Virus record (IMG/VR): IMGVR_UViG_3300042691_028844
Location: 22,581-86,580 of that record
Length of the DNA stretch: 64,000 bases
Reading direction: 5' to 3' (one strand)
DNA from: a virus
Shown here: positions 2,441 through 11,351 of the stretch, one piece after another
How the letters are laid out: every line of letters starts with the position of its first letter
Position numbering within the stretch: the stretch's first letter is position 1
Position numbers and translations under genes: made by a program
Notes under the pieces: generated by a model
Databases searched by the model: none
Told to the model about the DNA's origin: nothing
Seen by the model: only the letters and a program-made list of their open reading frames with translations

Positions 2441-2710
2441 TCAAACAGACTGACGAAGATGAGAGAAACCGGGCACTTCATGAGCCCAGTCGGGTGAGGG
2501 CAACGTGCGCCGCAATTCGTTATACAAACCCGGCTTAATGTTTATACGTTCCGCATCGTATGCGGCACTGCGCCAGATACCTGGCACTGCATCGCTACCC
2601 ATGTAGCCTTCATCCCATGCGGCTATACGTTGCCCTTCATTAACAAGAACATACAGCCGCCGTGGGTTACCATTACGGTCGTTATGTGTGCAAAGATGTT
2701 GGAAGTACAT
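2441..2710 (-). CDS. hypothetical early protein
   Basis: Likely start MYFQHLC; NDRNGNPRR motif. Confidence 0.7.
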   Translation of the reverse strand: MYFQHLCTHNDRNGNPRRLYVLVNEGQRIAAWDEGYMGSDAVPGIWRSAAYDAERINIKPGLYNELRRTLPSPDWAHEVPGFSHLRQSV

Positions 2711-2853
2711 GGCAAAAGATGCGACGAATTTAGTAAAACAATCAGCGAGAAAGTTTGGCCGATTGTTTACGCGAAAGGTTCGCAGCCTTGCGAGCAATTG
2801 CTTCGATTTGCTTAGCAGTCATGACGGATCACCTGTTAAAACAATGTGGACGT

Positions 2854-3490
2854 TGAGAGAGTGAATCTCTCAGGTAAAGTGTAAGTTACACCCTACGGGA
2901 GAGAATCACGCTGACAAGATAAACGCTAAGATTGATTCAGTGCCATGATCTAATTTAGATCATAACTTGATCCACGATTGGTCTACCTTGTCAGCGGACT
3001 AGAAACAATCCGGGATCCCTCAAAGGATCATCCGGTAATCAAACGGAAAACATAATCGACGCACAGTGTTAGTTACAGCGTACGAATGCAATCGCTGGCA
3101 GATAACTAATCCCGCCATCCTACGGGCGCCGCCGTGGTGAGGGATCAGTGTCCAACGGTCCGCGTACCTGCTCTAAAGACAGATACGCTGGACACAATCA
3201 GTACAATGTAACTAACACTGTGCGCTGATAATGTGTACGGTGCGACCCATACATTGCGCAGCTAGTTACAGGGAACGACCCTGCAGATCAGTTGTAGTTA
3301 CAACGTGCCCACTGATAATGCGTGACATAGATACAGAGCGTGAGTAGATAGGGTTCGCCTATCGGACAGTGTGACCCACGGTTATACCTTGCGGGGGAAC
3401 TTCCGCGCCCGCTTCATCACTTAAGTATGAAATAGTTAGCTATTGTGTCGGCTACCCGTGCTAACCCGCACACACATAACTAAACTATTT
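2854..3490 (-). ncRNA. large structured RNA or structured early leader, unassigned family
   Basis: Consecutive long stems, no ORF; most plus-strand A/C mismatches become G-U pairs on the minus strand. Confidence 0.65.
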
Positions 3491-3492
3491 AA

Positions 3493-3504
3493 TTGTCAAG
3501 GTTC
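3493..3504 (-). promoter_or_regulatory. boxA-like antitermination element (GAACCTTGACAA)
   Basis: One mismatch to the cyanobacterial rrn boxA GAACCTTGAAAA. Confidence 0.65.
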
Positions 3505-3643
3505 GTCAACCTAGTTACCTACTACAACTCCCGCCGCTCACGTTCGGTTACACCATGCCTGCCATCGCCTACGTTTCGGGGAAGAGCTCCCTACCATCGG
3601 CGGCACGCGTGGCGACCGTTCGGCCATCGCGGGGTTGATTCAG

Positions 3644-3678
3644 TTTTCAAGGTTCAACCGATCGGGTTTCGATCAGTG
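3644..3678 (-). promoter_or_regulatory. boxB-like hairpin followed by boxA (GAACCTTGAAAA-CTGAAT)
   Basis: Exact cyanobacterial rrn boxA at 3644-3655, preceded by hairpin ACTGATCG-AAACC-CGATCGGT. Confidence 0.75.
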
Positions 3679-3683
3679 AGCAC

Positions 3684-3713
3684 AGCATCGCCCCGATCTG
3701 GTCCGTCCGTCAA
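3684..3713 (-). promoter_or_regulatory. putative sigma70-type early promoter
   Basis: TTGACG-N18-GATGCT just upstream of boxB/boxA; the -10 is weak. Confidence 0.45.
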
Positions 3714-3807
3714 CCCTTTCCACTAGGTACAAATACCTATTCTTCTATAAGCGTAGCTAATGGTACAGGTGTCCTAGTCTGCCAGGGTCCTTCTCCAGTA
3801 GGAGGAA

Positions 3808-3887
3808 ACGCACGCACGCACACACACACACGCACACGCACACACGCACACACGCACACACGCACACACACACGCGAGCGCGCGCGT
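3808..3887. repeat. (CA/CG)n alternating purine-pyrimidine tract
   Basis: ~80 bp acgcacgcacgcacacac...gcgcgcgcgt with a single break. Confidence 0.95.
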
Positions 3888-4212
3888 TAAATAAAACTAC
3901 CTACCCCCTCAGTATTGTATAACAATAGAGTTGTTGTAGCCTACTCCTTGTGTGTTAGTTATACTCAGTGCTAAGTATAAAGAATAGCGAACGCTAAGTG
4001 TATAGCTTATGCTTACTGTCCGTGTTGGTCGCAAGGTCCTTTTTTTTATATAGCGCGCTTACTCGTCGGCGTGGGCGAGAAGGGTCTGGTAATTTTCTGG
4101 GTAAATTGGGGGGCGTAGTTTTGAGTGACAGCATATTGACAGATGCTTCACAAAAATTTTTTCGCCGCGTGGTTTTTGCTTTAGACTTATTCCACGCCGC
4201 GCAGAGTACGGA

Positions 4213-4434
4213 ATGTACTACAGAGATCAGGTTGTAACAGGGCCAGAATTACTGGAAGAGTACATTGCGCAGGTTACTCCTCGTATTGTTCGTAATATCT
4301 ACTCTGGGTACAGTGGTGAACCGCATATTATTACGCCTGGGGACAAATTAAATATGTTGATGGATTACCGTGATGTTATAGATCACGACGCGAATACTTT
4401 GCGTCAGGTTTTAGGCCCTATTCAAGCTCCTTGA
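4213..4434 (+). CDS. hypothetical protein
   Basis: First rightward ORF; upstream TAGACT. Confidence 0.65.
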   Translation: MYYRDQVVTGPELLEEYIAQVTPRIVRNIYSGYSGEPHIITPGDKLNMLMDYRDVIDHDANTLRQVLGPIQAP

Positions 4435-4657: not shown

Positions 4658-4731
<74 letters not shown>

Positions 4732-9481: not shown

Positions 9482-10162
9482 TCAATGGGCTTGTTCGTCA
9501 GCGTCCTTTGGGGTCCCCTTGATGCACCAGAGCTGCCAGCCGGGACAAAACGCTTTTTCGATGCACCTCAGTGCAGCCAGAGCACCCTCAACACCCCTAG
9601 CTACGTCCGCATCACCGAAATCGTCGAAGATAACTGCCCCGTGGTGACGGACTAGGGGCACGTAAAGAGCTGCGTCACGGCATACGGCTTCCGCTGTGTG
9701 CTCTCCGTCAATGTACAGGATGTCGATCTTGCGGTTCTCAGCCTGAAGTTGCCTTGCGACAAGGGGAAACAGGTCCCACGAGGCGCCTTTCATCACCGTA
9801 ACTTTGCCCGGATGCTTACTTTTAGCGATATTTGAGCGTGCAATGTACTCAATATCGTTAAGTGTCGGGAATTTTTCCCTGTTTTGCCGATATTCTTCGT
9901 TCCCTGTGAACGGATCGATTGAAATTAGACGACTTTCCGGGTGTTCTAGGAAGTTATCGGACCACCAGCACGACGAAGCACCTTCGTACACCCCTATTTC
10001 AACGATCGTACGATATTCATCCGGCAGGAATCGTAACTTTTCCGCCGTGGGCTCGTTGCTGACTCGCTGGTAACTGGCTAGGAGCTGCTCGTACCACGCG
10101 TGAGTGATTCTGTAGTCTTTGTTTAATTTGGAGTCCATAGGTGAAATTTTTTCAAACAACAT
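9482..10162 (-). CDS. class I SAM-dependent methyltransferase (Methyltransf_24-like)
   Basis: VEIGVYEGAS, IDPF, DILYIDGEH, VIFDD motifs. Confidence 0.85.
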   Translation of the reverse strand: MLFEKISPMDSKLNKDYRITHAWYEQLLASYQRVSNEPTAEKLRFLPDEYRTIVEIGVYEGASSCWWSDNFLEHPESRLISIDPFTGNEEYRQNREKFPTLNDIEYIARSNIAKSKHPGKVTVMKGASWDLFPLVARQLQAENRKIDILYIDGEHTAEAVCRDAALYVPLVRHHGAVIFDDFGDADVARGVEGALAALRCIEKAFCPGWQLWCIKGTPKDADEQAH

Positions 10163-11190: not shown

Positions 11191-11266
11191 GCGCGTCTAG
11201 CAATCTGGTGAATGCAGCGAACTCATAATTCGCCTAAGGTGGGTTCAATTCCCTCGACGCGCACCA
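11191..11266 (+). tRNA. tRNA with CAT anticodon (Met or Ile2)
   Basis: GCGCGTC/GACGCGC acceptor, GCGAA-CTCATAA-TTCGC, encoded CCA. Confidence 0.9.
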
Positions 11267-11351
11267 GCCCTGGTGGTGGAATCGGTAGACACAACAGACT
11301 TAAAATCTGTCGGCCATTGCGGTTGTGCGAGTTCAAGTCTCGCTCAGGGCA
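11267..11351 (+). tRNA. tRNA-Leu(TAA), intronless
   Basis: GCCCTGG/TCAGGGC, ACAGA-CTTAAAA-TCTGT, long variable arm. Confidence 0.95.

Follow-up and report, generated by a model that had tools for sequence, protein, structure and literature searches.

Evidence for a conserved, structured RNA in the early-operon leader of a probable freshwater cyanophage

What does a phage keep in a long, gene-free stretch at the head of its early operon? We asked this of nucleotides 2854-3490, minus strand, of a 64,000-nt window (bases 22581-86580 of the 86.6-kb virus record IMGVR_UViG_3300042691_028844; G+C, 49%). The stretch sits within a 1.4-kb gap, 2823-4212, in which a map of open reading frames (ORFs) places no credible ORF. 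An earlier note, made from the letters alone, had proposed that a large, highly structured minus-strand RNA lies here, either as a new noncoding RNA (ncRNA) or as a leader of the early genes. The structured stretch is real, but the transcript unit to which it belongs reaches ~190 nt further upstream, to a promoter near 3700: 2854-3490 is the 3' three-quarters of an ~850-nt minus-strand leader that runs from a σ70-like promoter to the first early gene (Table 1). We conclude that the stretch very probably specifies a conserved, structured minus-strand RNA that is part of this early leader.

The stems listed in the earlier note (the 18-bp and 16-nt stems and the hairpins at 2861-2907, 3010-3035, 3269-3283, and 3430-3490) were all located in the sequence, and both strands of 2854-3490 fold better than dinucleotide shuffles. 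The minus strand has a minimum free energy of -261.7 kcal/mol, a value that none of its 20 shuffles reaches (-191.3 ± 8.6; z -8.2), and the plus strand -220.2 kcal/mol versus -175.4 ± 7.1, again for 20 shuffles (z -6.4). A coding signal is absent: the longest stop-free run in the conserved core of the leader has a median of 58 codons among 61 homologs and 62 in shuffles.

To place the element among viruses, we turned to its relatives. The neighbouring small proteins led to 30 related viral loci, and the whole gap is homologous in 11 of them; a 1013-aa neighbour protein used as a query gave no related loci, and megablast and blastn of the gap against cultured phage records gave nothing. We built a search pattern from the two invariant stem arms and confirmed its matches with a profile of the core, the ~420-nt part of the leader that is best conserved and whose 5' flank is variable. 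The pattern returned 35 stretches in viral contigs, 25 of them confirmed, and 97 stretches in metagenome contigs; among 14 stretches in prokaryote genome contigs, the core profile recognized no family member, and no prophage or host link was obtained. The remaining 10 viral matches were discarded as chance hits in unrelated, mostly coding DNA. Altogether, 98 loci match the core profile and represent 67 distinct sequences. In contigs of independent DNA runs, and in many metagenome contigs, breaks fall at the inverted-repeat arms (3060-3080 and 3225-3240). We rejected the idea that these are genome termini, as contig ends cluster there in the way expected of assembly breaks; the breaks are an artefact that leaves the family in pieces in public data. 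The large terminase encoded in the window has Synechococcus phage S-EIV1, from an arctic lake, as its closest cultured relative (51% aa identity over the whole protein), and DNA runs that contain the stretch carry mostly freshwater labels. An uncultured freshwater cyanophage related to S-EIV1 is the best explanation for the source, and it is because of this relation that we presume a cyanobacterial host.

Covariation in these homologs, the lack of which the earlier note had named as a refutation, is present and supports a selected RNA structure at the head of the early operon, as that note had supposed; it does so most clearly in the 5' half of the core. We aligned this half in 62 sequences (alignment A2), derived a structure with RNAalifold, added a pseudoknot by hand, and counted 59 pairs in eight helices. 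With this structure, 86.5% of cells pair, compared to 28.3-42.6% when partners are slid by one to three columns; 42 of the 59 pairs change on both sides, versus 22-27 in the slid controls; and both-sided change is seen in 446 cells, versus 80-152. The structure came from the same alignment, so these controls flatter it somewhat, but the margin is still large.

The covarying structure has three parts. First, there is an H-type pseudoknot, whose two crossing stems were the only helices to emerge when the first alignment was scanned blindly for stacked helices (an all-against-all column scan had been too lax and let through thousands of spurious pairs). Compensatory changes occur in each stem, with both-sided change in four of five pairs of helix 1 and in all five of helix 2, and with 79% and 88% of the cells paired, respectively, in A2; in the window itself, which MAFFT misaligns at this place, the pairing was read by eye. 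Second, an inverted repeat of 41 nt with 80% complementarity (3043-3083/3201-3241) includes a perfect 18-bp duplex, P1 (3060-3077/3207-3224). Nine of 16 P1 pairs, the inner ones, never vary, while the outer pairs covary (helix 3 of A2). Third, P1 closes a multibranch domain that comprises a hairpin, P2 (3195-3148), a stem, P3, with an inner hairpin and an invariant CGAUGGC (3148-3106), and a CUGG/CCAG-type helix. Both-sided changes affect 8/10, 4/4, 11/14, and 3/3 pairs of helices 5 to 8. In some subfamilies (L059, L118, L124, and L137; A2 columns 150-190), another hairpin replaces P2 and carries an additional GUUAGUUACA-like copy in its loop. We also considered a mini-ORF downstream of the P1 3' arm and set it aside: its start codon varies between AUG, AUA, and GUG, and those letters belong to the covarying stem.

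Which strand is the functional one? The minus strand is most likely the transcribed, structured strand, and we say so mainly because of near-invariant U-G pairs, the orientation of the promoter and of the boxA signals described below, and the pseudoknot. U-G is kept in 59 of 61 sequences at one pair of a terminal clamp (alignment A3 of the 3' half of the core) and in 45 and 25 of 62 at two other pairs in A2. The better fold of the minus strand and the orientation of the genes agree with this call. The earlier note had argued for the same strand from G-U pairs; this stands in the window, where 31 of the 240 pairs of the minus-strand fold are G-U, but is weaker across the family, where well-paired columns hold 141 G-U cells versus 76 A-C cells. 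Among RNA runs, X20 contains a single 151-nt contig (depth 2) at 3022-3172 with three differing letters, plus a piece near 1201-1400 and tRNA-like pieces; these contigs reveal neither strand nor ends, could be DNA carry-over, and lead us to no conclusion on transcription or habitat.

We regard the core as a new RNA family and the element as a whole as a structured early leader of a phage that carries putative antitermination signals. A scan of the whole window with Rfam 15 at the gathering threshold returned three tRNAs only, and a permissive scan of 2600-4300 (E up to 10) returned five weak matches of 13.7-21.3 bits, none of them inside 2854-3490. Hence, the failure of the earlier note to match the stretch to tmRNA, RNase P, introns, or a hammerhead is borne out, and the ROOL and GOLLD models, whose size class it had invoked, likewise gave no match. 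Like ROOL and GOLLD, the element spans hundreds of nucleotides, has many helices, is phage-borne, and has come to light without a known function; unlike them, it is placed as a 5' leader, with a promoter on one side and the first gene on the other, and not as a free-standing gene, and its core is smaller, at ~420 nt. No family of the HK022 put or Bacillus EAR type was matched at either threshold, although the content of the library for antitermination RNAs was not checked. A literature search for cyanophage antitermination or boxA and for the motif letters listed nothing relevant at the level of titles.

We then considered the part of the leader upstream of the core. In rRNA operons (rrn) and in lambda, boxA loads Nus factors and makes RNA polymerase resistant to termination; in rRNA leaders, a boxB-boxA pair is bound by NusB/NusE together with NusA, NusG, and SuhB, and the lambda nut sites use the same signals. 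The cyanophage leader carries two boxA copies, the second one letter off the first, and the first is identical, letter for letter, to the cyanobacterial spacer boxA: the boxA given in one published description of cyanobacterial 16S-23S spacers (PMC8461337) is exactly GAACCTTGAAAA. These are the letters of the host rRNA operon if the host, presumed as above, is cyanobacterial. In 53 family loci with enough upstream DNA, boxA-like motifs were found in 50, and two copies in 41, compared to two motifs in all on the opposite strand of the same stretches; a TTGAC-N17-20-nAnnnT element precedes the first boxA by 55-70 nt in 47 of the 53. Thus, a conserved boxA lies downstream of the promoter, itself a consensus match, on the transcribed strand. 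Relatives have hairpin-capable sequence at the position of the boxB-like hairpin (judged by eye in the gap alignment). The hairpin that directly follows the second boxA has arms AAATAGTT...AACTATTT in the window, and a similar hairpin with changed stem letters is seen by eye in L013 and L014. Identity to L014, L013, and L009 is 84-85% over 3448-3653, whereas the block between the boxA copies, for which Rfam holds no match, is absent in L016, L017, and L019. This ~140-nt block is flanked by repeated GAACCTTGA(A/C)AA, as though it had been inserted or duplicated.

This arrangement resembles rrn leaders and lambda nut regions: there, too, the promoter of a very long operon is followed, within a few tens of nucleotides, by a hairpin (here a candidate boxB) and then by boxA. 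It differs in having two boxA copies 150 nt apart and in the lack of a recognisable N-like protein; moreover, rrn leaders and nut regions have no conserved, structured core of 420 nt, whereas the cyanophage leader has one. Nus binding and antitermination by the cyanophage signals are putative.

How would such a leader work? We favour, at a probability of roughly 0.55, a cis-acting leader that combines rrn-type antitermination with a core for processing and translation control. Host RNA polymerase would start at the σ70-like promoter near 3700, meet the boxB-like hairpin and the exact host rrn boxA within ~30 nt, and meet the second boxA 150 nt later; these signals would most likely load a host Nus-factor antitermination complex and thereby allow read-through of the ~25-kb operon. 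The ~420-nt core would come next, with a copy of an operon-wide motif, the H-type pseudoknot, P1 and its multibranch domain, two hairpins, three GAUC sequences, and the terminal clamp, and may act in cis as a module for transcript processing or stabilising and for translation entry. P1 may be a double-stranded, RNase III-type stalk for processing or stabilising that also keeps an antisense copy of the motif occupied, and the terminal clamp and an alternative hairpin may form a switch, attenuator-like in two thirds of relatives. Of the two options left by the earlier note, the leader gains and the free-standing ncRNA loses: we prefer the leader because the element is placed between the conserved promoter/boxA region and the first gene and because the copy in the window has no terminator-like end.

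P1 ties the leader to the rest of the operon. Its invariant 3' arm, UGUAACUAAC, is the intercistronic motif of the early operon, and its complement, GUUAGUUACA, is essentially limited to the 5' arm of P1. In the 67 family loci, allowing at most one mismatch, there are 125 sense versus 11 antisense motif copies downstream of the leader and P1; the bin that holds the P1 5' arm contains 69 antisense copies, and any other bin 0-7. We collected 129 distinct motif contexts, with the consensus cUGAuuAAC-UGUAACUAAC-cCAAc. The next AUG follows after 16-23 nt in 62 of these and within 45 nt in 107, and the motif therefore sits between early genes. It provides stop codons in two frames; the spacer behind it is C/A-rich and takes the place of a Shine-Dalgarno sequence. 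Three early-gene AUGs of this genome come directly after the 8-nt motif core, with copies of UGUAACUAAC / UAACUAAC at 2210-2219, 1127-1134, and genome position -14672 relative to the window, again with no Shine-Dalgarno sequence; among the intercistronic elements of the early operon in relatives, none is as common as UGUAACUAAC / UAACUAAC. The motif was also tried as a σ70 promoter and rejected, there being no conserved -35 element upstream of its copies.

Such a distribution invites the idea that the core is cut from the leader, for example at P1, and acts in trans, with the freed GUUAGUUACA arm pairing to UGUAACUAAC and shutting off or timing early translation, or with the core sequestering a host protein. 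The near-unique antisense copy would then face sense copies that precede early-gene AUGs by 16-23 nt; in some subfamilies, loops carry further copies of one motif or the other, and a well-conserved core behind a variable 5' flank would also fit. However, the antisense arm is locked in P1, a duplex with a predicted energy of -20.4 kcal/mol, the window has no terminator after the core, and a processing site, a discrete RNA end, stability, and action in trans are conjecture. We regard this reading as unlikely. A more ambitious and more doubtful scheme, which we would call improbable, makes the leader a riboregulatory hub in which a hijack of rRNA antitermination is coupled to operon-wide translation control: P1 would store the only antisense copy of UGUAACUAAC, and refolding or RNase III cleavage would release the arm or expose decoys, timing early translation through a master anti-initiation RNA.

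The 3' half of the core is less well supported than the 5' half, and its segment with the hairpins Ha and Hb is the least secure. Both hairpins recur with different letters in single-sequence folds of relatives, while RNAalifold on MAFFT alignments of this half misses them, their register differing between subfamilies. The 16-bp stem at 2909-2996 singled out in the earlier note is present in the window, where it encloses a ATGATCTA/TAGATCAT hairpin, but is specific to it: the 3' arm is missing in the other 60 sequences of A3, which holds 61. Three GAUC sequences (2972-2969, 2961-2958, and 2950-2947) are invariant in nearly all 61, with varying letters between them; a four-pair hairpin between the second and the third pairs in 99.6% of cells and never varies. 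The triple GAUC could serve RNA contacts, palindromic kissing, or DNA methylation, and a DNA methyltransferase-like gene lies at 9482-10162. In the terminal clamp, the invariant GAUUCUCUCC is paired across the family with a purine-rich partner, GAGGGAUUC; the eight clamp pairs are invariant, and the three inner hairpin pairs all change on both sides. The same purine-rich strand can form a different hairpin, GAGAG-UUCAC-CUCUC at 2871-2855 in the window.

Could the core instead be a sensor, that is, riboswitch-like or a protein-dependent attenuator, in which a ligand or an early phage protein at the pseudoknot or the multibranch domain picks the pairing and sets entry into the operon? Two sets of mutually exclusive pairings would suit it. 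In one, an upstream motif copy competes with the 3' arm of P1 for the 5' arm: most relatives have CUGUAACUAAG at the place equivalent to the upstream copies in the window, with a near-copy ~90 nt upstream of the P1 5' arm, and its duplex with that arm has a median of -9.0 kcal/mol versus -5.75 for a control stretch, reaching -10 kcal/mol or lower in 28 of 64 cases versus 1 of 64. In the other, the clamp competes with the terminator-like hairpin: in all 61 sequences a YYCUC lies downstream with which GAGRG can pair, (C/U)UCUC matches both of the two GAGAG variants, and a U-rich tail (at least five U) follows in 41 of 61 and gives the hairpin the look of an attenuator. So judged, the pairings are exclusive throughout the alignment, and the sequence features of an intrinsic-terminator attenuator occur in two thirds of the family and not in the window. 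The U-rich tail is absent in the other 20 of 61 sequences, the window included (at most two U in nine nucleotides); the terminator-like stem has only five to six pairs; no known aptamer matches in Rfam; and the early proteins have no recognisable RNA-binding domain (Pfam, 0 of 7 scanned proteins with a match, and none for the 118-aa ORF at 2441-2797). We consider a sensor highly unlikely.

Very improbable, finally, is that the inverted repeats act as DNA, as operators or origin iterons between divergent operons with GTTAGTTACA as a protein-binding site and the three GATC as methylation sites: the invariance of the P1 arms and the GATC, the 1.4-kb gene-free gap between divergent operons beside a conserved block rich in A and a tract of alternating purines and pyrimidines, the methyltransferase-like protein, and the good fold of the plus strand would suit it, but a pseudoknot and hairpins that change letters while keeping their pairing have no DNA-level reading, the U-G pairs that 59 of 61 sequences retain would, on the other strand, amount to A-C mismatches, the motif copies outside the stem are strand-specific and lie ahead of start codons, and boxA and promoter put the region inside a transcript.

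Several points weigh against the cis-acting leader and the structure on which it is built. The sequences are related, so shuffle controls, in which 0 of 500 shuffles of A2 attain any of five measures, overstate significance, and the slid controls are the fairer ones. The arms of P1, the clamp, and the GAUC hairpin are invariant, so their pairing is not proven by covariation, and such strict conservation could serve a protein or DNA. In the Ha/Hb segment, folding z scores range from +0.44 to -3.88, with a median of -1.34; 13 of 15 are negative, and 2 of 15 are -2 or lower. The excess of G-U over A-C is about 2:1 and not decisive alone, and the missing terminator-like tail tells against the proposed terminal switch as well as against a sensor. 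The nearest cultured phage, S-EIV1, was searched with the pattern, for boxA-like motifs, and with the profile (E up to 10), each time without a match; the element is therefore not essential to the lineage. Lastly, transcription, transcript ends, cleavage, and protein binding of the leader are predictions.

The cis-acting leader has partial parallels beyond rrn. The RNase III sites of T7 lie between genes and are local hairpins that contain internal loops. As with the RNase III stalks of T7 and of rRNA precursors, a long, near-perfect duplex of distant segments encloses a structured domain here, and its double-stranded length (18 perfect bp, or 41 nt when complementarity of 80% is allowed) accords with the ~20 bp or more of such a stalk; unlike at T7 sites, the arms of P1 are invariant and consist of a copy and an anti-copy of an operon-wide motif, and cleavage of P1 is a prediction. 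The HK022 put element, ~70 nt with two stem-loops, acts directly on RNA polymerase, as does Bacillus EAR. Both share with the cyanophage element the position of a cis-acting structured RNA just downstream of an early or operon promoter in a long transcription unit, but the cyanophage core is ~6 times larger than put, contains a pseudoknot, and is accompanied by boxA signals.

Table 1. Features of the leader and its surroundings (window coordinates)
Feature	Position	Strand	Basis
σ70-like promoter: TTGACG 3713-3708, 18-nt spacer, GATGCT 3689-3684	3684-3713	-	Consensus match; start near 3677 predicted
boxB-like hairpin GAUCGAAACCCGAUC, between promoter and boxA copy 1	3660-3674	-	Sequence
boxA copy 1, GAACCTTGAAAA	3644-3655	-	Letters of cyanobacterial 16S-23S spacer boxA
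Conserved block of ~140 nt between boxA copies	3505-3643	-	Present in part of family
boxA copy 2, GAACCTTGACAA	3493-3504	-	One letter off boxA copy 1
Long hairpin directly after boxA copy 2, AAAUAGUU...AACUAUUU	3430-3490	-	Fold
Variable leader part, local hairpins near 3347-3363 and 3391-3412	3305-3429	-	Fold; poorly alignable across family
Two upstream motif copies, GUUGUAACUACAAC (3304-3291) and UGUAACUAGC (3270-3261), flanking hairpin CAGGGUCGUUCCCUG (3283-3269)	3261-3304	-	Sequence
H-type pseudoknot; in the window, UGCG/CGCA crossing UGUAUGG/CCGUACA	3234-3260	-	Covariation and blind helix scan
5' arm of P1, holds GUUAGUUACA	3207-3225	-	Invariant core, covarying outer extension (helix 3)
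Multibranch domain closed by P1	3078-3206	-	Helices 5-8 of A2
3' arm of P1, holds UGUAACUAAC	3060-3077	-	Inverted repeat, alignment
Hairpin Ha, CCGGAUGAUCC...GGAUCCCGG	3010-3035	-	Single-sequence folds
Window-specific 16-bp stem, 2996-2981 with 2924-2909, around three GAUC	2909-2996	-	Inverted repeat
Terminal module: clamp of GAUUCUCUCC (2907-2898, invariant) with GAGAGAUUC (2871-2863), enclosing a covarying hairpin	2855-2907	-	A3
First small early ORF: AGGUGA 2834-2829 and AUG 2822-2820	2820-2834	-	ORF map

The leftward minus-strand gene block headed by the leader is ~25 kb long and holds many small ORFs, followed by genes for a MoxR ATPase, a VWA protein, DNA polymerase A, and a D5-like primase-helicase, while the plus-strand genes to the right of the gap include terminase and portal. 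Pfam and PHROGs searches with the small early proteins and with the first genes in relatives returned Kyano_Gp96 (764-1111), one PHROG of unknown function, and no other family. In relatives of type A, a small hairpin, CCAGC...GCUGG (CCCG...CGGG in L117 and L143), lies 30-45 nt ahead of the first gene and overlaps the GGUGA/GGGGA that precedes the first AUG; it resembles a covarying ribosome-binding-site hairpin. Between the divergent operons, at 3800-3885, there is an ~80-bp alternating purine-pyrimidine (CA/CG)n tract; similar tracts with other letters occupy the same place in L011, L016, L017, and L019, and other relatives have shorter CG-rich runs. Upstream of the leader promoter, a TTCTCGCC...TATATAAAAAAAAGG...TTGCGGGCA block (~4035-4100, in minus-strand reading) is conserved in almost all of the 11 relatives aligned and could be part of the control region of the rightward operon or of an origin. 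The rightward arm also carries tRNA genes for Arg-TCT, Met-CAT, and Leu-TAA (4658-4731 and 11191-11351).

If the cis-acting leader is correct, this would be the first case found of a cyanophage that copies the boxA of its host's rRNA operon to drive a long early operon. The core would add a new RNA family that is large, covaries well, includes a pseudoknot, and counts at least 67 distinct members, in lineages widespread in lakes and estuaries. By tying a leader structure to the motif that marks early-gene starts, it would also give a handle on the timing of early expression in uncultured phages, and a host-type boxA would be a sequence signal that helps to assign hosts to them.

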